Virus record (IMG/VR): IMGVR_UViG_2541047766_000005
DNA from: a virus
Lineage: Duplodnaviria > Heunggongvirae > Uroviricota > Caudoviricetes
Strand: one strand, 5' to 3'
Length of the DNA stretch: 40,812 nt
The first letter of the stretch is position 1; the number at the start of each line of letters is the position of its first letter. The translations under genes were made by a program, and so were the position numbers. The notes beneath the pieces were generated by a model. It made no database searches. It saw nothing but the letters and a program-made list of their open reading frames with translations, and was not told the origin of the DNA. Positions 8,424 through 40,812 of the stretch are shown piece after piece.

Positions 8424-8624
8424 TCAGGCAGCCTTGTTGTTCTGTTTACCAAGTTCTCTGGCAATCATTGCCGTCGTTCGTATTGCCCATTTATCGACAT
8501 ATTTCCCATCTTCCATTACAGGAAACATTTCTTCAGGCTTAACCATGCATTCCGATTGCAGCTTGCATCCATTGCATCGTTTGAATTGTCCACACCATTG
8601 ATTTTTATCAATAGTCGTAGTCAT
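8424..8624 (-). CDS. ral: Restriction alleviation protein Ral
   Basis: 66-aa ORF MTTTIDKNQWCGQFKRCNGCKLQSEC..., matching lambda Ral in length and (from memory) sequence. Confidence 0.65.
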   Translation of the reverse strand: MTTTIDKNQWCGQFKRCNGCKLQSECMVKPEEMFPVMEDGKYVDKWAIRTTAMIARELGKQNNKAA

Positions 8625-8702
8625 ACGGATAGTCCTGGTATTGTTCCATCACATCCTGCGGATGCTCTTCGAACTCTTCAAATTCTTCTTCCATATCTCA
8701 CC

Positions 8703-8906
8703 TCAAATAAGTGGTTTGCTGCCTAATTTCATTTTCTGGCGACCAACACAAGTCACACCCATTTCACTGCGTGGCTTGCTGTAGTAAAGATTGTGCCTGT
8801 CTTTTAACCACATCAGGCTCGGTGGTTCTCGTGTACCCCTACAGCGAGAAATCGGATAAACTCTATTCACCCCTACAGAGAGCAAAAGAGAAACGCCGAT
8901 GAACAA
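8703..8906 (-). pseudogene. Fossil of a lambda-type N gene (only the C-terminal ~28 codons are N-like)
   Basis: ORF ends ...YYSKPRSEMGVTCVGRQKMKLGSKPLI, closely resembling the lambda N C-terminus (...YSKPGERGITCSGRQKIKGKSIPLI); upstream part has no N similarity and overlaps the SieB-like start. Confidence 0.45.
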
Positions 8907-9480
8907 CTCATGGTGGCAGGAACTAATGCATTTTTTCCTGCAAGGAATGACACTTAAACAGTTGATTCATATGCTAATCATCCTGATCATATTGATTATT
9001 GTTATGCCGGTAAGCGTAAAAGAATGGATAAACCTGCATAATCCAGAAATCCTTCCTCATTATTGGATGTATTACATCCTGTTGTTCTGCGTTAGCTATG
9101 TGCTTAACGGTGTAGTTAATTCCGCTTATCACGCTGTGACTGAAAGAATTGAGGTATCCGCTGCTCAGAAGCGCAAATCCAAAGAAGAAAAATATGTGCA
9201 AGATTTGTTTGATTCGTTAACTCTTGGAGAAAGAGCGTATTTGGCATTCGCTGTAGCCGCTAATAACCAGCTACAAACGGAAAAGGGAGCTCATGAATCA
9301 ATTTCATTGCTCAAAAAAGGCCTCCTCGTTCGAAGGCCTCCTGCTGTTGGATATCCTGATACCGACCGTTTTATTATCCCGGAAAGCTATAGACATGAGT
9401 GCTACATTAGGTTTGCCGGGAAGGCAGACAGCCTTATGGATGAACTTATCGCTCAGGATAAGCATGGCAAAAACAAGTAA
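8899..9480 (+). CDS. sieB: SieB-like superinfection exclusion membrane protein
   Basis: 193-aa ORF on the opposite strand inside the early-left operon between ral and N; two N-terminal hydrophobic helices; N-terminus MNNSWW... recalled as SieB-like. Confidence 0.6.
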   Translation: MNNSWWQELMHFFLQGMTLKQLIHMLIILIILIIVMPVSVKEWINLHNPEILPHYWMYYILLFCVSYVLNGVVNSAYHAVTERIEVSAAQKRKSKEEKYVQDLFDSLTLGERAYLAFAVAANNQLQTEKGAHESISLLKKGLLVRRPPAVGYPDTDRFIIPESYRHECYIRFAGKADSLMDELIAQDKHGKNK

Positions 9481-9496
9481 TTAGCAAATGAATTTA

Positions 9497-9769
9497 TCAT
9501 CTCGCTGTCAGTTGTTTTGATTTCCGGTAGCCTGCCGCGTAAAGAGCTACGTTTGGCAGGCAAATACTTCCACTGCGTTCATCTTCTTCCTTACAGCGAA
9601 GGCTTCCGAGTGATGCTGCTTTGTCTGCTCTGACGCAACCAGAGAGCTTTAGCGCAATCTTTCGCGCCAGTCGCTGTTCTTGCATTGCCTGTTCACGTTG
9701 AGCCTGTCTGCGTGCTCTGCGGCGATTTCTGGCGTTATCGTCAGCCAGATATGTAATGACTACTGTCAT
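9497..9769 (-). CDS. N-like transcription antiterminator (P22 gp24 type)
   Basis: 90-aa ORF with arginine-rich motif NARNRRRARRQAQ near the N-terminus and C-terminus LPNVALYAAGYRKSKQLTAR resembling P22 gp24; GGAGG SD; first gene downstream of nutL. Confidence 0.75.
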   Translation of the reverse strand: MTVVITYLADDNARNRRRARRQAQREQAMQEQRLARKIALKLSGCVRADKAASLGSLRCKEEDERSGSICLPNVALYAAGYRKSKQLTAR

Positions 9770-9877
9770 GTTGACCTCCGATGATTGACTTTGGCGGTGA
9801 CGCGCCGGGTGCTTATCTTCCGGTTGCCGTCGTGCAGCTGCACTTCACGTCACCCCAAAGCCAACTACTCTTTGGTT

Positions 9878-9917
9878 CCCGCATTTCGGCGGGACAATCC
9901 CATCAATGTTAAAGAGC
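9878..9917 (-). promoter_or_regulatory. nutL (boxA GCTCTTTAA and boxB hairpin CCCGCCGAAATGCGGG)
   Basis: On the leftward transcript, boxA-like GCTCTTTAACA then a 5-bp-stem hairpin; the same boxA and an identical boxB occur at 11547-11589 downstream of cro. Confidence 0.7.
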
Positions 9918-9965
9918 CTGCCAATCTGTTCCGTTTGGCTACCAGCGTCCTGCTGATGGCTAAAG

Positions 9966-10050
9966 AATACTGTAGGTATTTTATTGTGTAAATACCCAAG
10001 GTATTTATTTTTGGTGAGATAATGATAAGCAAATGAATACAAAGGATATT
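9966..10050 (-). promoter_or_regulatory. OL operators and pL region
   Basis: Three 15-bp sites AATACTGTAGGTATT (9966-9980), AATACCCAAGGTATT (9991-10005), AATACAAAGGATATT (10036-10050) sharing AATAC-N5-GTATT dyad symmetry with the OR sites. Confidence 0.65.
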
Positions 10051-10136
10051 TATTTTTTCGGTGTCTGCTTGTTCAGTGCTTTTTATGCGGGATATGTGAA
10101 GTGGATCCCGATAGCTATTGCTGCCGGGATTATGGG

Positions 10137-10505
10137 TTAGTCAGCGAAGGTTAAGACGAGAATTACCTTAATGATGTCTGCTACAACAGACACGGCCATA
10201 GATAAACCAAAGACAATCCAAGCCATAGAGATGTCTTCACTACCATCGTATAGAGTTCCGTAATCACTGGTGTAAGGCGTAAATGTCGCGCCTTGATACA
10301 ATAGGTATAAGCTTGATCCATAGAGGATAAATGCAGATATTCCTTGTATTGCCATGATCACCAGAATCATGAAACGAGCTGATCTATGCGCCCAAGCCTG
10401 GCTTATTTTTTCTGATAGAGATTTCGCAATAAAAGCATGCGCTAAGCCGTAAATTGTCGAGATTGCCAACATCCCAAAAAAGCTTGCTATAGCGGTTCCA
10501 ACCAT
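10137..10505 (-). CDS. Multi-pass membrane protein encoded immediately downstream of cI (rex-position gene)
   Basis: ORF with three predicted hydrophobic helices; probable ATG start at 10505 with AAGGGG SD (track ORF starts at TTG 10526 overlapping the cI stop). Confidence 0.6.
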   Translation of the reverse strand: MVGTAIASFFGMLAISTIYGLAHAFIAKSLSEKISQAWAHRSARFMILVIMAIQGISAFILYGSSLYLLYQGATFTPYTSDYGTLYDGSEDISMAWIVFGLSMAVSVVADIIKVILVLTFAD

Positions 10506-10522
10506 AAGCGCCCCTTGCGTGA

Positions 10523-11239
10523 TCAAACCAGCCTTAGTTTTGTCTCAATTGCAACGCCTATAATCTTGCAGTTTCCATTGATTGGCACGAGAGGCCATGC
10601 AGGGTTAAGTCCCTTGAGGTATTTATTTCCGCCGTCGATTATCAGCTTCTTGAATGTTGCTTCGTTAGAGTCAGAAAGTTTTGCTATGACCAAGCTGCCG
10701 TTGATCGCCTCCCTTCCGGTATCGAAAAGAACGAATGTTCCCTCTGGAATGCTTAACCCAACCGGTGCCGTCATTGAATCACCTTCCACTTTAAGCCAAA
10801 ACGCATTACCTTGAATATGCGCGTCAGACTCAAGCCAAACATCTATGTCTTTAATGGTGTATGGTTCGCATGCTTCACACCACGAGCCAGCCTGGATACT
10901 GCTTAACACCGGATACCTCTTTCCTGCTCTGTATTCCCCTGCATACCTTACGTTGGCATCGCTCTTAAGGCTTTCTGCCTGTTCTGCAACCTTGGCAGCA
11001 ATTGACTGGCTAAAATCAGCAATTGAGACTTGCAACAGTCGTGCAAAACCAGATGCAACCTCAACGTTTAGCGCGTTTCTGCCATTAAGATAATGCCCTA
11101 CCGCTCCTTGGGTGATACCCAGTTCATCAGCGATTGAGTATTGGGTTATTCCCAATTCTTTCTTTTTTGACTCATACAAAGCCTTAAGCCGCTTAGCGTC
11201 TTCGAGCTGTTCTGTCGTCAGTGATTTTTTATTTTCCAT
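10523..11239 (-). CDS. cI: CI-type prophage repressor (HTH N-terminal domain, LexA/S24-like C-terminal autocleavage domain)
   Basis: 238-aa ORF with lambda-CI-like architecture (QYSIADELGITQGAVGHYLNG helix-turn-helix; C-terminal VEGDSM...FKKL motif); divergent from cro across the operator region. Confidence 0.9.
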   Translation of the reverse strand: MENKKSLTTEQLEDAKRLKALYESKKKELGITQYSIADELGITQGAVGHYLNGRNALNVEVASGFARLLQVSIADFSQSIAAKVAEQAESLKSDANVRYAGEYRAGKRYPVLSSIQAGSWCEACEPYTIKDIDVWLESDAHIQGNAFWLKVEGDSMTAPVGLSIPEGTFVLFDTGREAINGSLVIAKLSDSNEATFKKLIIDGGNKYLKGLNPAWPLVPINGNCKIIGVAIETKLRLV

Positions 11240-11250
11240 AGCTTAATTCT

Positions 11251-11314
11251 AATAGCTAAGGTACTTAAACTAAAAATACCCTGAGTATTGATTGCTTTGA
11301 ATACCTGTAGTATT
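11251..11314. promoter_or_regulatory. OR operators with divergent pRM/pR
   Basis: Three 15-bp sites AATAGCTAAGGTACT (11251-11265), AATACCCTGAGTATT (11275-11289), AATACCTGTAGTATT (11300-11314), centres 24-25 bp apart, between cI and cro. Confidence 0.7.
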
Positions 11315-11345
11315 CTTTGTTCATGGTTAATAACGGAGAGTGCAT

Positions 11346-11540
11346 ATGATTCGAATGACACTTGCCGATTACGCCAAAATCCATGGACAGGCTAAAGCAG
11401 CCAGTGACTTTGGTGTAATCCAGTGCGCTATCAGCAAGGCCATTCTGGCAGGCCGTAACATTATGGTTACGGTAAAGCCTGATGGCAGTGTGATTGGAGA
11501 GGAAGTTCGTCCTTTCCCAAGCAACAAGAAAAACAAATAG
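11346..11540 (+). CDS. cro: Cro repressor
   Basis: [36 protein letters not shown]... resembles lambda Cro; GGAGAG SD 5 nt upstream of ATG 11346 (track ORF begins at GTG 11340). Confidence 0.85.
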
Positions 11541-11546
11541 TAACAC

Positions 11547-11589
11547 CGCTCTTTAACAGTCATGGTCCTCATTCCCGCCGAAATGCGGG
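11547..11589 (+). promoter_or_regulatory. nutR (boxA CGCTCTTTAA, boxB CCCGCCGAAATGCGGG)
   Basis: boxA 11547-11556 and hairpin 11574-11589 just downstream of cro; boxB identical to nutL. Confidence 0.7.
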
Positions 11590-11648
11590 AATACAACGCG
11601 CATCAGTTGGTGCGTATAACTTCTTATTTGTTAAGGAAATACTTACAT

Positions 11649-11927
11649 ATGCAACTTACAAGTACTCGCAAGAAAGCGAATGCAATTACAAGCAACATCC
11701 TGAATCGAATTGCTGTACGTGGTCAGCGAAAGGTTGCTGATGCATTAGGGATTAATGAATCGCAAATTTCGCGATGGAAAGACAGCTTTATCCCAAAGAT
11801 GGCCATGCTTCTGGCTGTGCTGGAGTGGGGTGTTGAAGACGAGGAATTGGCGGAACTGGCAAAGAAAGTAGCCAAGGTGCTGACAAAAGAAAAGCCTCAA
11901 GACTGCTGCAACAGTTTTGAGGCCTGA
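11649..11927 (+). CDS. cII: CII transcriptional activator
   Basis: 92-aa ORF from internal ATG; ...ALGINESQISRWKDSFIPKMAMLLAVLEWGV... closely resembles lambda CII; upstream track extension overlaps nutR and is rejected. Confidence 0.85.
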   Translation: MQLTSTRKKANAITSNILNRIAVRGQRKVADALGINESQISRWKDSFIPKMAMLLAVLEWGVEDEELAELAKKVAKVLTKEKPQDCCNSFEA

Positions 11928-11961
11928 TGTAGAAAGACTGGATCAATCCACAGGAGTAATT

Positions 11962-12123
11962 ATGACAAAACGTCGTAAGAAATACCAGGAAAAAGAAGAG
12001 ATTCGACACCCTGATTCACCTGAGGGATTAGTGGTAGCCGCAGCAAATAACAGGGCGTTCGCAGAGCGCCTTGTTGGTGTTTACAGACTAGCCAAAGCAG
12101 GAGTGAAACATGGGCGTCGTTAA
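11962..12123 (+). CDS. Small basic hypothetical protein between cII and O
   Basis: 53-aa ORF from ATG 11962 with AGGAG SD; track ORF starts earlier at 11917. Confidence 0.4.
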   Translation: MTKRRKKYQEKEEIRHPDSPEGLVVAAANNRAFAERLVGVYRLAKAGVKHGRR

Positions 12124-12931
12124 GTTAGCTGATTACAGGCCTCAACTGGAGGTCGTGGAGCATCGCTTGGCAGATACCGAAGATGGTTTCATGCGCGTTG
12201 CTAACGAGATTACCGACAGTCTGCTGATGGCTGATTTAACCGTCCGGCAGTTGAAGGTGATGCTCGCTATCATGCGCAAGACATACGGATTCAATAAGCC
12301 GATGGATCGACTCACAAACACGCAGATAGCAGCCATGACAGGTATTCATCACACTCATGTTTGCGCTGCCAAGCGCCAGCTTATTGAGCGTAAATTCCTC
12401 ATTGCTGATGGCGTGAAAATCGGAGTGAACAAGGTGGTTTCTCAGTGGATTAGCCAGGACAGCTTAAAATTAGCTAAAACAGCTAATAAAACATTAGCTA
12501 AGTCGGCTAATGGGTATAAGCCAAGTCAGCTAAACACAAAAGACAATATACAAAAGACAATAAATACAAATACCCCCTTACCCCCTAACGGGGGCGGCGA
12601 TGGGCAGGTTAAACCTGAACGTCGCAAGGCAGAACGAATCGACTACGAATCCTTCCTGAACGCCTACAACACCGAAGTCGGTGACAGACTTCCACATGCT
12701 GTTGCGGTCAACGAGAAACGCAAACGCCGCCTGAAGAAAATCATCCCGCAACTGAAAACGCCAAACGTGGACGGTTTCAGAGCGTATGTCAGGGCGTTTG
12801 TGCATCAGGCCAAGCCGTTTTACTTCGGAGACAACGACACGGGCTGGACGGCCGATTTTGATTACCTGCTGAGAGAAGATTCGTTAACGGGAGTTCGTGA
12901 AGGGAAGTTTGCAGACAGGGGGATTGCATGA
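12110..12931 (+). CDS. Replication initiator (O-like replisome organiser)
   Basis: 273-aa ORF in the lambda O position with AGGAG SD; contains internal iteron/AT-rich ori-like segment. Confidence 0.75.
12460..12565. repeat. Putative replication origin inside the O-like gene: AGCTAA iterons plus AT-rich tandem repeat
   Basis: AGCTAA/GGCTAA repeated at 12472, 12481, 12496, 12505, 12528; CAAAAGACAATA direct repeat at 12537-12548 and 12551-12562. Confidence 0.5.
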
Positions 12932-18369: not shown

Positions 18370-18573
18370 ATGTACCGTATGGACAAAATCAGAGAATGGT
18401 TCAGTTACAGCTTCGGAGGACTGACTGCGATGGGTGGCATTCTCTCCCTGAATGACTGGGCTGTCATCATTGGTATTCTTTGTACTGTCGGCACATTTGG
18501 CATCAACTGGTACTACAAGCGCAAAGAGCGCGAGGACAGATTGAATGGCAATGTCACCGGCACTACGAAATAG
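18370..18573 (+). CDS. Pinholin-type holin with dual start (MYRMDK)
   Basis: 67-aa ORF, two transmembrane segments (Gly/Ser-rich TMD1), Met1/Met4 dual start like phage 21 S; immediately upstream of a SAR endolysin. Confidence 0.7.
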
Positions 18574-20538: not shown

Positions 20539-20799
20539 TCAACCCCTGTTGAAATTCTCTTTTGCTTCATTAATGAGATCTGAAGCGATCCGAAAGCTAT
20601 TAGGGTTGGAATTGCTAATCAAACCTTTAACTGTTTCTTCTAATTCAATCAGCGCCTGATTGCTGTGCGCAGACCTTGCAACGTTAGTCAATAAGGCAAC
20701 CAAAATTGCCTCATGGGCAATGGCATGTTCTTTATCAGTTGTTTCTATGCGAAGCGGGCTGTTGGATGATCGTAGGCTTGTTTGGTTGAACGAAGACAT
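20539..20799 (-). CDS. Hypothetical protein, antisense to late operon
   Basis: 86-aa ORF with AGGAGG SD 4-5 nt upstream of ATG; convergent with rha. Confidence 0.55.
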   Translation of the reverse strand: MSSFNQTSLRSSNSPLRIETTDKEHAIAHEAILVALLTNVARSAHSNQALIELEETVKGLISNSNPNSFRIASDLINEAKENFNRG

Positions 20800-20852
20800 T
20801 CTTCCTCCTATATGTCATTGGTAATTTTAACCGCCTTTGAAGGTATAACACT

Positions 20853-21059
20853 ATGTCCGACATCTACCAAATCACGCTAACCACCCAAACAGGCGAAACC
20901 TTCACTGGCAAGATGTCACGACGTCAGCATGAGCTGGTTAATGGCTTTGTGCCGCTGGCGACCGAGACAGGCGAGTAGCTGTACTTTGCTCCTGGTGATG
21001 CGAAGCGCGTGCAGTTCACGCCAGTAGCGGCAGGACAGACAGAGCAAACGACGGAGTAA
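20853..21059 (+). pseudogene. Small ORF interrupted by an in-frame amber codon (TAG at 20976-20978)
   Basis: ATG 20853 opens MSDIYQITLTTQTGETFTGKMSRRQHELVNGFVPLATETGE, then TAG, and the same frame continues for 26 codons to TAA. Confidence 0.3.
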
Positions 21060-21156
21060 CCTATGGCTAACGATGGAGAGCCTAGGTAATGTCCGCCAAT
21101 TATCTTTCCCGACTCTGGCAACTGGCATCCATGAGCCTTTTTACATATGCTGAGTA

Positions 21157-22062
21157 TTAACTGATATATCCATGAGCTTTGAGATAATTTTCTGCAATAA
21201 TCATACCTACTGGATTGATGACTAGTGAGTCAAGTTCTGTAAGGGTTGAAATACCAAAAGAGTCGAGAACTAATTTTGTAGCTGGGAATGCTTCATAAAA
21301 TGATGCATCAGATGTAAGAGTGTCATAACCCGTTCTTTTTGATAATAACTCTAAGTAATTGATATTATATATTTTATCTGAGAAAAATACGCCTTTAATT
21401 TCTAATAGCTGCTGATTTAGGCGTTTGAGGGTGAAATGTTCTCCAAGAAATTTTATATAATCTGTTTCATAAACAGCATACATTGACCTATGGATCATGT
21501 AATTTTCTTCCAAGGAAATGTTAGGTAGTGAAAAATGAGTACTTTTTTTCTCTGCAAGTTCTGTGATATTTATACTTCCTACCATCTTATTGATTGAACG
21601 TAAAAAATATACAAATGCCAAAAACTTAATATCATTAGTGGTCAGTCTGGATGTTGTATCTAACGCTTGATCGATCAAAATGCTTTGGTCTTCTTGATCG
21701 TTTTCAATTTTAGTAACTATTAACTCCTTAAGAAGTTCTGATTTTGCATCAAACCCCTTTCTTGCGACCTGAACGACTGCTTGATTGAGGGTGTACTGAA
21801 TATCGGGATCAGCGAGTTTTGCTCTTAGTTTTTCATCAACATCTTTAGATAGTTTTTCTGCAATTTGGTGACCAAATTCTTGAGCCCGTGAGTCGACTAA
21901 AGCGAATGCATCTTCACGAAGCGAAGCCATTTCACTTTTGACCATTAACTGGCAAATAGCCATGACCTCAGTAGTGGTGTTGCCAAAGTAGGCATCACCG
22001 GTAACTTGTATAGCTGAGGAGTTATCACCCACACTTTGACCGGATTTCTCGAATAAGCTCAT
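21157..22062 (-). CDS. Unknown-function 301-aa protein of an AT-rich antisense accessory cassette (candidate defence/exclusion effector)
   Basis: Long ORF in strongly AT-rich DNA, opposite to the late operon, between lysis module and terminase; ATGA overlap with upstream small membrane gene; no P-loop, HEPN or other motif I can recognise. Confidence 0.7.
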   Translation of the reverse strand: MSLFEKSGQSVGDNSSAIQVTGDAYFGNTTTEVMAICQLMVKSEMASLREDAFALVDSRAQEFGHQIAEKLSKDVDEKLRAKLADPDIQYTLNQAVVQVARKGFDAKSELLKELIVTKIENDQEDQSILIDQALDTTSRLTTNDIKFLAFVYFLRSINKMVGSINITELAEKKSTHFSLPNISLEENYMIHRSMYAVYETDYIKFLGEHFTLKRLNQQLLEIKGVFFSDKIYNINYLELLSKRTGYDTLTSDASFYEAFPATKLVLDSFGISTLTELDSLVINPVGMIIAENYLKAHGYIS

Positions 22063-22304
22063 TCTTTGTCCCTTTCATTAATAGTTATGTTGCCACCAAT
22101 TTGTATACCGCTAGAGTTATCGCCGATTGTTTGGCTAACACCTTGCTCTTTAGCTTTGTTGCTTTTTAGATTTGCTAAGGCTGTTAGAAAAACGACCAAA
22201 CTCGCTAATGCTGCTAGCGCTGTGGATAATGTTTGACTGGTTATGGCTTGATAGCCAAAGCCTAAAGCCGAACAAAAAGATACAAATACGATTAATTTTC
22301 TCAC
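22059..22304 (-). CDS. Small membrane protein of the same accessory cassette
   Basis: GTG start at 22304 6 nt after GGAG (track ORF starts at ATG 22361 inside the terS start region); two hydrophobic segments; C-terminal GDNSSGIQIGGN motif echoed at the N-terminus of the 301-aa partner. Confidence 0.6.
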   Translation of the reverse strand: MRKLIVFVSFCSALGFGYQAITSQTLSTALAALASLVVFLTALANLKSNKAKEQGVSQTIGDNSSGIQIGGNITINERDKE

Positions 22305-38070: not shown

Positions 38071-39537
38071 TTAATTGCAGTTGAATGTAATGTTTTTATC
38101 GTAAACAAAAATCTTCTTATCTCCGACGTCAATAACCTTTGATGGATTACCAATCTCTTTAATTGTTATATTTCTCATAACCTCGTCATCTGTAATTATG
38201 AAATTTCCTCCGCGCTCATACCAATAGTTTTTTGACAACCATTTATTGCATGCAAGTATATTCAAACCTCGGTTTACATCAATCGGAGCAATTGATATGT
38301 CTCCATCTATACTTGCTGATGAAGCAAACCAGAAAGATGCATACCCGTTTGTGAGGTTATTCTGCCTTACAGTGTGTTTTATCTGATTTATAATATCATT
38401 AGAATTGTCTTTTTTTTCATGCATATAAATAGAACAAAAGAGAATAAATGTTGTAACAACCCCTAATGCGATGAATTTCCACCCTCTGGAGTTGTTAGAT
38501 CTGCCAATAACAACAGGTGCTAGTATAAAAAATGGAACGATATATCTTATAGTCCATTCATCTATTGGACGGTTACTTGCAAGGTATGCTGGTATCATTA
38601 TAATACAAGCTATACATATAGCCATATTGATCATGGAGGTAAAGAATATTTCCTTTACTGACATTGCAACTAATATAAGAAGTAAAATCATTACAACAAA
38701 ACAAAAAACAGAAATAAGCGCTGTAATATCAGAAGGTGGCTTGCCAAAGAAGAAAGCTCCACTGTATAGGAGGAATCCTTTTACGAATAAGTATAAATTA
38801 TTCAGGATATCATCAAATGCAACAAATGTTGGATCTGGAACGCCTGGCAAAATGTACCAGTTATGAGCTCTTGCGTACATGGTCATAATTTTTGATGCAA
38901 CATATGCAAATATAGTTGCAACTAGTATGATCAGATTTTTTTGGCTTTTGGTTTTTACTATAAAAATCACTGATGATATTGCTACTGGTGCAATAATGAG
39001 TAGCTTTATGATGTCATCACTGAAACAAGCTAGAGCTAACACTAAAATATAAAGAGATAGAGAAATTAACGATCTTGTTTTGGAAAAATTGTCTAACATT
39101 ATGAAGCAAAACAACATGGATACATATGTGCCGACATGTATCACAGGTATTAATACGTTTAATACTGCAAACCCAGAAGGCAGCGCAACGCAAAATGAAA
39201 TGGCCCATAACGATGAAAGCCTTTCTTTTGAAAGATAAAATGTCATCAATGTAACCATTGAATACATAATTGCCGGTATGCAGTATGCTTGGTACTGTCC
39301 GTACCAGAATACCTTTGAAGCAAGCCCGTACCATATTATGTCTGTAAAATAGAATGATACTGTAGAGAGATACCATCCACTAAGCGTCCAATTTCCGTCC
39401 GCAATGTCCTTACCCTCAAGAAGTCCAGAAACAGCATCCGAACTTGGCAAAATCTGTTTTGAAATCGAGGCGTAGAAGAAAGTCAGGAATATAAATCCAA
39501 TGATGTATATGGCTGTTTTTTTTATATTTAAAGTCAT
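38071..39537 (-). CDS. Serotype-specific O-antigen glucosyltransferase (GtrC-type polytopic membrane protein)
   Basis: 488-aa multi-pass membrane ORF, very AT-rich, immediately downstream of gtrB in the gtr operon. Confidence 0.75.
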   Translation of the reverse strand: MTLNIKKTAIYIIGFIFLTFFYASISKQILPSSDAVSGLLEGKDIADGNWTLSGWYLSTVSFYFTDIIWYGLASKVFWYGQYQAYCIPAIMYSMVTLMTFYLSKERLSSLWAISFCVALPSGFAVLNVLIPVIHVGTYVSMLFCFIMLDNFSKTRSLISLSLYILVLALACFSDDIIKLLIIAPVAISSVIFIVKTKSQKNLIILVATIFAYVASKIMTMYARAHNWYILPGVPDPTFVAFDDILNNLYLFVKGFLLYSGAFFFGKPPSDITALISVFCFVVMILLLILVAMSVKEIFFTSMINMAICIACIIMIPAYLASNRPIDEWTIRYIVPFFILAPVVIGRSNNSRGWKFIALGVVTTFILFCSIYMHEKKDNSNDIINQIKHTVRQNNLTNGYASFWFASSASIDGDISIAPIDVNRGLNILACNKWLSKNYWYERGGNFIITDDEVMRNITIKEIGNPSKVIDVGDKKIFVYDKNITFNCN

Positions 39538-39538
39538 T

Positions 39539-40453
39539 TTACTTATCCTTTAGAATGTATCTTGGTCGCTGCTTAACTTCAACATAAATTCTTCCTATAT
39601 ACTCTCCAAGAACTCCTATGCCTATTAACTGAACTCCACCAAGAAACAATATTGATACAATGATAGAAGGGTAACCTGGAACACTATTTCCAAACATCAA
39701 TTTATCAGCAATCATCCATGCTCCATAAAGGAATGATAAGGTTGCCACAAACAGGCCTATATAAGTCCACATGCGCAAAGGGAAAGTAGAAAAGCTAGTG
39801 ATCCCTTCCAGCGCCAAGTTCCATAGCTTCCATCCATTGAACTTTGTGCTTCCTGCAACGCGTTCTGCTCGCGCATATTCTACGACATCGGTTCGACCAC
39901 CAACCCAGCTCAGCACACCCTTCATAAACAGGTTTCGTTCTGGCATGAGCTTAATGTTTTCTACTACTTCGCGAGACATGAGCCGGAAGTCGCCAACATT
40001 CTCTTCTATCTGAGGGTTGCTGATTTTGTTATGAAGTTTATAGAACCACTCAGCAGATTTACGCTTCAGCCTGCTGTCAGTGGAGCGGTCAGAGCGTTTA
40101 GCCAGAACCATATCTGCACCGGCCTGCCATTTCTCTATCAAGTGAGGAATAACTTCTATAGGGTCTTGCAGATCAACGTCAATCGGGATAATTGCCTCCC
40201 CGGTAGCATGGTCCAGACCTGCGAACAGGGCAGGTTCTTTGCCGAAGTTACGTGTGAACGACAGCGAAACCACAAGCGGGTCGGCAACAGCAAGCTCGTT
40301 GATAATTGATTCTGTAGCGTCTTTGCTGCCATCGTTTATGAAGACTATCTCGACTTCATGCTGCTGAAGCCCTTCAAATTCGCGCACGGTTTTATAAAAA
40401 ATAGGTATCGTGGCCTCTTCGTTAAAGACCGGAACGACTAAAGAAATTTTCAT
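39539..40453 (-). CDS. gtrB: Bactoprenol glucosyltransferase GtrB (GT2 family)
   Basis: 304-aa ORF with GT2 N-terminal domain (VVPVFNEE...DGSKD) and two C-terminal transmembrane helices. Confidence 0.9.
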
Positions 40454-40812
40454 TTCGCATCCCTAAAGACAATGAACTTTGAATAGACGAAACCGCACAC
40501 CAGGCTGATGGCGGAGAAGGTGACAAGAGTTATCATCGGAGGAAGTGCGCATCTATCAGCAGCCCATCCAACAGTAGCACTCAGTGTTCCCATGAACCCG
40601 ACATATAACATGTAGCGCATCGTTGTAGTTGATGCTTTGAATGTGAATTTTGCATTCGCGAAGAAGCTAAAACTCACAGCCACAACGAAACCTGCGAAGT
40701 TTGCCAGAGCCTGATTGGTATGCGCGGCATAGATACATACACCAAAAACCACCCAGTGTATAAGTGTGTTCAGCACACCAATCGAGGTGTACCTTGCAAA
40801 TATATTTAACAT
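40450..40812 (-). CDS. gtrA: GtrA flippase (bactoprenol-glucose translocase)
   Basis: 120-aa four-helix membrane ORF matching GtrA of serotype-converting phages; start codon at the last three bases of the window. Confidence 0.88.

Follow-up and report, generated by a model that had tools for sequence, protein, structure and literature searches.

What is the one small gene that lies directly behind the repressor gene cI in a P22-like prophage of Escherichia coli, and what might its product do for the lysogen? The question is raised by the IMG/VR virus record IMGVR_UViG_2541047766_000005, a stretch of 40,812 nucleotides (nt) that was analysed at its full length and is called the window here. 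The window is a P22-like prophage integrated beside ybhC; its initial 25 kb are 100% identical to E. coli strain PS_131_S11, in whose chromosome the complete 40.8 kb are present. A reading made from the sequence alone had picked out positions 10137 to 10505 as a gene for a multi-pass membrane protein in the place where phage lambda carries rexA and rexB, and had suggested an exclusion or lysogenic-conversion function for it.

The gene is an allele of hkaS, which was annotated in this position in phage HK620 in 2001 and whose function has been listed as unknown since. The open reading frame (ORF) and its place were already known, and an uncharacterised prophage accessory gene that appears to be cotranscribed with the repressor will not surprise specialists in lambdoid phages. 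New are the signs of selection on the gene, the topology predicted for its product, the extreme restriction of the family and its pairing with the repressor, which is one-to-one and co-divergent.

Identity and distribution

The ORF list and translation place the ATG of the minus-strand ORF at 10505 and its TAG stop at 10139..10137, giving a product of 122 residues with three predicted transmembrane helices. The same coding sequence is called by PGAP as the hypothetical protein WP_000233127.1 in an E. coli chromosome identical to the window. The product is equal in length to HkaS of HK620 (AAK28867.1; record AF335538, where it is labelled "unknown") and 96.7% identical to it, with 4 differences, and it matches PHROG 6534, a family of no known function, over residues 1-122 of 122 (E 4.6e-79). 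By sequence and by position, therefore, this ORF is an allele of the HkaS/PHROG 6534 family, an identity that the sequence-only reading had missed.

The start codon could be fixed by comparison. In every diverged lineage the ATG is kept together with an AAGG(G/A) Shine-Dalgarno sequence, although the remainder of the spacer differs, and the distance between the two (about 5-8 nt) is constant across the HK620, HK140, Salmonella and Hafnia-type loci and a metagenome contig (L007). In the window the Shine-Dalgarno sequence is AAGGGG (10511..10516, minus strand), 5 nt upstream of the ATG and within the 17-nt spacer between cI and hkaS (10506..10522). A longer form of 129 residues beginning at TTG, as given by the ORF finder, was rejected: there is no conservation of the extension, which in the Salmonella lineage is cut off by an in-frame stop immediately 5' of the ATG. 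The concern that the true start might lie far downstream and leave a non-membrane remnant does not apply to an ATG and Shine-Dalgarno sequence conserved in this way.

The immunity region of the window has 97-98% DNA identity to those of HK620, HK630, HK140, mEpX2, HF4s, HZ41 and several Stx2c-converting phages. The carriers of the hkaS module thus include HK620 (Lederbergvirus), HK140 (Hendrixvirinae) and Stx2c-converting phages, which differ in virion type, so that the immunity module moves independently of the structural genes. Besides these phages, among them some Stx2c phages and the laboratory phages HK620, HK140, mEpX2 and HK630, about 2.7% of complete E. coli genomes (146/5426) carry the gene.

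Beyond this circle the family is narrow. A search of 5.8 billion proteins gave 12 HkaS clusters, from Escherichia, Salmonella, Enterobacter and Hafnia and all hypothetical, and 1.84 billion cluster representatives, searched exhaustively with a profile, gave 2 matches, the family representative and one 44-residue fragment. No hkaS was found in the GTDB species-representative genomes (one per species). Pfam returned noise only, with TssN at 0.066 and Cation_ATPase_C at 0.0012 (3/7 members), both under the cut-off; NCBIfam gave no match, and 0 families of the PADLOC-DB 2.0 defence-protein models matched at E up to 1. The literature search found no paper naming both HK620 and hkaS, the term 'hkaS' alone leading to fungal herbarium codes, and hkaS goes unmentioned in the searched passages of papers on SieA, Tai, svsR and urinary coliphages.

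Evidence of selection

All hkaS homologues down to 52% identity consist of 122 codons, with zero insertions or deletions; the E. coli and Salmonella alleles share 61% identity overall. In the comparison with the Hafnia-type copy, in which synonymous sites are unsaturated, the ratio of non-synonymous to synonymous divergence (dN/dS) is about 0.14; in deeper comparisons the synonymous sites are saturated and the non-synonymous divergence (pN) is just 0.27-0.32. Among the IMG/VR copies, 80/80 are intact and represent 19 protein alleles, and their polymorphic sites fall 15/2/19 on the three codon positions, the second positions being nearly invariant. hkaS is a genuine gene under purifying selection. 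The rival view, that the ORF is decaying or has arisen by chance in the AT-rich spacer that separates cI from the operators, could draw on a GC content of 41.7% for the ORF, lower than the 46.9% of the window, on annotation everywhere as 'hypothetical' only and on the finding of no homologues outside the cI-operator context, but it is already ruled out by the comparative data, namely the preserved length and frame, the low dN/dS and the intact copies, together with the conserved start codon and Shine-Dalgarno sequence and a confident AlphaFold2 model.

Predicted structure of HkaS

Hydropathy analysis (Kyte-Doolittle, 19-residue windows) gave three peaks above 1.6, at approximately residues 3-27, 45-70 and 93-119, so the 122-residue ORF with three hydrophobic helices of the sequence-only reading is borne out. 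Loop 1 (residues 28-44) contains 4 K/R and 1 D/E and loop 2 (71-92) contains 0 K/R and 4 D/E. By the positive-inside rule the four basic residues of loop 1, against none in loop 2, predict that the N-terminus is outside, loop 1 cytoplasmic, loop 2 periplasmic and the C-terminus inside. The model generated by AlphaFold2 from a seven-sequence alignment (pLDDT 92.5) has helices at 2-29, 31-38, 41-73 and 89-121, that is, three long helices, and a short beta-hairpin in loop 2. The chain, which closes with ...LTFAD, ends 3 residues past helix 3. From the model and the hydropathy together we infer that HkaS is inserted in the membrane, as a predicted three-pass inner-membrane protein of 122 residues.

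Among the homologues down to 52% identity 43 positions are invariant, including K33, W38, H40, R44, Q54, a YLLY motif, D110, K113 and the C-terminal ILVLT-A. Conservation is highest in the cytoplasmic loop (9/17 positions invariant, mean identity 71%) and lowest in the periplasmic loop (4/22, 52%). The variable periplasmic loop is compatible with, and weakly suggestive of, a phage-facing outer surface that evolves faster. No significant helical periodicity of conservation, as expected of a pore-lining or interface face, was detected (p = 0.18-0.99). A sequence-profile search of the PDB gave no match at E up to 10, and fold searches returned nothing beyond generic helical bundles.

Linkage with one repressor lineage

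Wherever upstream sequence is available, hkaS follows an HK620-type cI at a distance of 17-20 nt and is itself followed by the operators and the N gene. The diverged loci examined were four from Salmonella (L003-L006), the metagenome contig L007 and three of Hafnia type (L008-L010), in which cI is 86-96% identical to that of the window. In IMG/VR, cI lies directly upstream of hkaS in 79/80 loci, the remaining locus ending at a contig edge. The two genes also have the same occurrence in complete E. coli genomes: each is present in 146/5426, in 147 places, all of them chromosomal prophage contexts.

In comparisons of the window with L003, L007 and L009 the synonymous distances (pS) of cI and hkaS are nearly equal: 0.81 and 0.79, 0.77 and 0.78, and 0.48 and 0.45. 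This equality indicates a long history of joint inheritance as a unit. At non-synonymous sites, in the same comparisons, hkaS has diverged about 3.4-4.6 times as much as cI, and among the E. coli genomes at least 99% identity to the query is reached by cI in 142/146 and by hkaS in 14/146. hkaS is under weaker constraint than cI, as judged from these sequence comparisons. The strict pairing with one cI lineage is not in itself an argument for functional coupling, because any cargo between cI and the left operators is trapped in a co-inherited immunity module.

Outside the HK620 lineage, the nearest cI of the phage collection (64.7% identity) belongs to Cronobacter phage ENT39118, which is without hkaS. 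Behind this cI (L094, 2694..3700) there are an unannotated 120-residue ORF without obvious hydrophobic segments and a short 'CI-like repressor' gene. A slot occupied by other ORFs agrees with the published description of the cI-to-N interval as a mosaic hotspot, which carries rexAB and bstA in other phages (PMC8585504).

Position and probable expression of hkaS

The first cistron is cI (10523..11239, minus strand), which encodes a repressor of 238 residues with HTH_3 (8.1e-10) and Peptidase_S24 (5.2e-24) domains. It differs from the HK620 repressor in 1 residue and is 100% identical to that of mEpX2. Its TGA stop occupies 10525..10523, leaving the 17 nt to the hkaS ATG on the same strand. The mapped coordinates bear out the placing of hkaS directly 3' of cI and before the left operators and the promoter pL, and the order cI, cargo, OL/pL/N is shared with lambda, as the comparison with the rexA/rexB slot had implied. 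A RexA-like partner had been noted as missing, and there is no room for a second ORF before the operators are reached.

The right operators were mapped from the HK620 annotation to 11250..11315: OR1 (11315..11299) and OR2 (11290..11274), which match AATAYN5RTATT exactly, and OR3 (11266..11250), a weaker copy. A candidate for the promoter pRM can be read at 11246..11274 (minus strand), with TTTAGT (11274..11269) and TAGAAT (11251..11246) separated by a 17-nt spacer. Its -35 hexamer overlaps the promoter-proximal end of OR2 and its -10 hexamer ends 6 nt ahead of the cI ATG, from which transcription might be placed, by inference only, at or near the A of that ATG, leaderless as in lambda. This candidate was not reported by the strict promoter scan.

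The same scan found no promoter-like site between cI and hkaS. The 17-nt spacer, with its conserved Shine-Dalgarno sequence, has no room for a promoter or terminator of its own, which makes co-transcription the natural reading, and in the HK620 record the cI transcript is given a terminator past hkaS. The co-transcription suggested at the outset is therefore supported at the level of sequence: hkaS is most likely the second cistron of the pRM transcript and would be transcribed in lysogens. As a member of the cI operon it would be expected to be produced whenever cI is made.

Comparison with known systems

HkaS does not belong to the families of RexB, SieA, SieB, Hex or the holins, since for each of them it lacks defining features. 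For RexB, BLASTP gave E = 9 and hhalign a probability of 0.7%, and no RexB family was among the Pfam matches at E up to 1. The likeness to RexB is one of type and place, as a polytopic inner-membrane protein encoded downstream of cI, on the repressor strand and before OL/pL, with expression expected in the lysogen. HkaS has 122 residues and 3 predicted helices, whereas RexB has 144 residues and reportedly 4 helices; RexB lies 15 nt after rexA, while HkaS lies directly after cI, with no RexA-like sensor gene in the operon.

Another comparison is with the single small membrane proteins with little soluble mass, SieA, HK97 gp15 and T4 Imm. The first two are expressed from prophages and Imm is an early protein, and all are reported to stop the phage genome from entering at the inner membrane. 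HK97 gp15 is a small single inner-membrane protein with this action (PMC3594210) and P22 SieA is reported as an inner-membrane protein that blocks DNA delivery by P22-like phages (PMC10883804). Their genes are placed differently from hkaS, sieA lying beside the immI region and gp15 within the tail operon. A relationship with P22 SieA was rejected (hhalign probability 0.3%), and no match of HkaS to single inner-membrane exclusion-protein families was found in Pfam.

Phage 434 has hex in the same slot, right after a related cI (about 52% identical, lambda imm434 record), and by RT-PCR the lysogen transcript runs from cI into hex (PMC3564112). Exclusion, RecA-stimulated repressor cleavage and spontaneous induction, which it lowers, are all reported to be affected by Hex (PMC3564112). 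Unlike HkaS it has a signal-like segment at its N-terminus and lacks a multi-pass hydrophobic core, and a relationship was rejected (BLASTP E = 4). As now annotated (134 residues, L011, 3130..3534) 434 Hex begins MIRIAALLSILLTTSANSEC, which resembles a secretion or lipoprotein signal. This start is hard to reconcile with the published model of cytoplasmic repressor protection; a note in GenBank states that the start codon given in the paper is wrong. BstA of the Salmonella prophage BTP1, which is reported at sites of phage DNA replication and has a DNA self-immunity element (PMC8585504), has no similarity to HkaS.

The window contains its own SieB-type superinfection-exclusion gene at 8899..9480 (plus strand), convergent with N and 660 base pairs (bp) from hkaS (PF14163, 2.2e-22; phrog_1301). 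Like HkaS, P22 SieB has hydrophobic segments and is the product of a single prophage gene; it is an abortive-infection protein that acts alone. The SieB-type protein of the window is larger (193 residues), its hydrophobic segments lie in the first half of the chain and its gene is on the other side of N. HkaS has no PF14163 match, and membership of the SieB family was rejected.

Class I holins have three transmembrane helices with the N-terminus out and the C-terminus in, an arrangement that HkaS is predicted to share. Membership was rejected here as well, since HkaS has no charged C-terminal tail, is not encoded in a lysis cassette and matches no holin family in Pfam or PHROGs; the prophage has a holin gene of its own at 18370..18573.

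Possible function of HkaS

Judged from its position and protein type alone, HkaS may be a stand-alone protection factor, expressed by the prophage and acting at the inner membrane against superinfecting phages; this is the reading that we tentatively favour, at a little short of an even chance. HkaS would be made continuously in the lysogen from pRM, and from the promoter pRE during establishment. Its N-terminus would be periplasmic, the basic 17-residue loop cytoplasmic, the acidic 22-residue loop with its beta-hairpin periplasmic and the C-terminus cytoplasmic. By analogy it would act at the cytoplasmic membrane, most probably by disturbing the membrane step of genome entry, which is favoured because the characterised single small inner-membrane phage proteins (SieA, gp15 and Imm) work in this way. 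Exclusion is ranked above a triggered abortive mechanism because HkaS has no partner and almost no soluble mass for sensing; an abortive system of the RexAB type, with sensor plus channel, is less likely.

Several points weigh against a protective role. The prophage already has the SieB-like gene and a gtr-like cluster (described below), so that protection is not an unfilled need. A place next to the repressor does not dictate function, as 434 Hex illustrates with its effect on repressor cleavage as well as exclusion. No intrinsic terminator that would define the 3' end of the transcript was called after hkaS by the terminator scan, the hairpin found there included. Finally, no functional study, experiment or publication on the HkaS family was found in the literature.

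A bolder form of the protective reading, in which HkaS founds a new one-gene, partner-less family of membrane defence, suffices alone to stop heterologous phages at the inner membrane by a mechanism unrelated to those of RexB, SieA, Imm and gp15, and has a target specificity set by the fast-evolving periplasmic loop, is doubtful. Still less likely is the variant in which the invariable pairing with the repressor reflects a link between a membrane protein and repressor maintenance. Should HkaS prove to be a factor of exclusion or abortive infection, it would rank among the smallest stand-alone defence proteins known, and its activity would affect host-range tests and phage-therapy matching for lysogens with HK620 immunity. 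Without a phage-related role it would serve as a counter-example to the reading of every repressor-adjacent gene as defence.

The alternative that survives best, though unlikely, is that HkaS is an abortive-infection effector, a latent permeabiliser of the membrane resembling RexB or a holin in action and not in ancestry, which, when triggered by a product of an infecting phage, would depolarise the membrane and kill or arrest the cell before progeny are formed. This would suit a gene in the lambda rexB slot whose product has the predicted three-helix topology of a class I holin and invariant polar or charged residues inside its helices (Q54, S65, S106, D110 and K113), and SieB, with the homologue at 8899..9480, provides a one-gene, membrane-associated precedent in this phage group. 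A triggered effector is harder to reconcile with the lack of a partner or sensor gene, with loops of just 17 and 22 residues and with the lack of the charged C-terminal tail usual in holins. HkaS is presumably made constitutively with cI in lysogens that survive it, and there is no similarity to RexB, no holin family match and no helical periodicity of conservation to mark a pore-lining face.

Rather more improbable is lysogenic conversion directed at the host, by which HkaS would change the envelope; it might, for instance, make the lysogen immune to a pore-forming bacteriocin or toxin, affect its tolerance of stress or modulate a host membrane transporter or protease. A small polytopic inner-membrane protein of the lysogen, as HkaS is predicted to be, could act in this way, and strong conservation of the cytoplasmic loop and the C-terminal helix is what a conserved host partner might demand. 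The E1-type pore-forming colicins have three-helix immunity proteins, which HkaS resembles in size and number of helices, a general resemblance for which the comparison was made through Pfam only. No match to immunity-protein or transporter families was found in Pfam, NCBIfam or the PDB, and no relatives of HkaS were found on chromosomes or plasmids, in contrast to HK97 gp15/YebO; every place of hkaS in E. coli is a chromosomal prophage context. Prophage morons with roles in host fitness are nevertheless common (PMC3594210).

The remaining functional alternative, a regulator of lysogeny with a role like that of Hex, has little probability. HkaS would then tune repressor stability, induction or the lysis-lysogeny decision, for example via a membrane protease such as FtsH/HflKC, and would stay with this repressor as its working partner. 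The strict one-to-one association with cI over a long divergence, at equal synonymous distance, and the expression from pRE that would be expected during establishment are in keeping with such a role, and 434 Hex, encoded just after cI and reported to lower spontaneous induction (PMC3564112), is a precedent. As discussed above, the linkage is explained by enclosure in the immunity module with no need of functional coupling. HkaS has no similarity to Hex, the N-terminus of which resembles a secretion signal, it offers hardly any surface on the cytoplasmic side for contacts with cI or RecA, and it evolves at non-synonymous sites about 3.4-4.6 times faster than cI, with no sign that it tracks changes in cI.

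The region downstream of hkaS

An RNA hairpin, AUCCCGG(CAGCAAUAGCUA)UCGGGAU, begins 7 nt past the hkaS stop (10105..10130, minus strand) and is not followed by a U tract. RNA folding of 10145..10000 gave -20.2 kcal/mol (z = -2.2). The hairpin may form the 3' end of the cI-hkaS transcript or stabilise it. By eye, the Hafnia-type locus has a like hairpin at the matching place, with one G-to-A change in the stem and pairing retained, and in the Salmonella and L007 loci there are palindromic stretches suggestive of hairpins that are unrelated to it. An Rfam search over 8500..12500 found nothing relevant. Between the repressor operon and pL/N there is no canonical terminator that would prevent read-through into N in the lysogen.

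Beyond the hairpin lie OL1 (9981..9965) and OL2 (10006..9990), together spanning 9965..10006; they are annotated in HK620, contain exact palindromes and are conserved in all lineages. A third palindrome, at 10036..10050 (AATATCCTTTGTATT on the minus strand), matches AATAYN5RTATT exactly as well, which places the left copies at 10050..10036, 10005..9991 and 9980..9966. The window has five exact matches only, namely OL1, OL2, OR1, OR2 and 10036..10050, and the last is conserved in all diverged lineages. In the HK620 record this palindrome is covered by the label tIMM (10025..10055), and OL3 is placed on a non-palindromic stretch (10028..10012). From the sequence, OL3 seems to be misplaced in the GenBank record, 10036..10050 being the likelier third left operator. 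Repressor bound there, 86 bp beyond the hkaS stop, might act as a roadblock that ends the cI-hkaS transcript.

A one-mismatch copy of the operator palindrome (GATATTCCTTGTATT) also lies within hkaS itself, at 10336..10350, over the codons of the conserved A-I-Q-G-I. It is probably a coincidence, since about 5 one-mismatch sites are expected by chance across the window.

The promoter scan places pL at 9964..9992 (minus strand), with TTTACA and TATTCT separated by a 17-nt spacer, which coincides with the pL of HK620. The first gene of its operon, at the far boundary of the slot, encodes the antiterminator N (9497..9769, minus strand; PF25694 N_peptide, 2.9e-16; phrog_271). An antisense ORF for a very hydrophobic 35-residue peptide (10033..10140, plus strand), with its ATG in the operator palindrome, was rejected: it is intact in close relatives only and is interrupted by stops in three diverged lineages, and it is probably spurious.

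Other accessory genes of the prophage

Two further regions of the window are occupied by leftward genes. At 20539..22304 (minus strand) three of them lie between the lysis/Rha region and the terminase genes and resemble a separate insertion of accessory genes; they include a gene for a 301-residue protein of the LPO_1073/Vpar_1526 family, and a pseudogene with an internal stop is also present in the region. At 38071..40812 (minus strand), past the tailspike gene, are a GtrA family gene, a family-2 glycosyltransferase gene and a hypothetical gene of 488 codons. This arrangement resembles a gtrABC cluster for O-antigen modification, which would give the prophage a further conversion or exclusion function.

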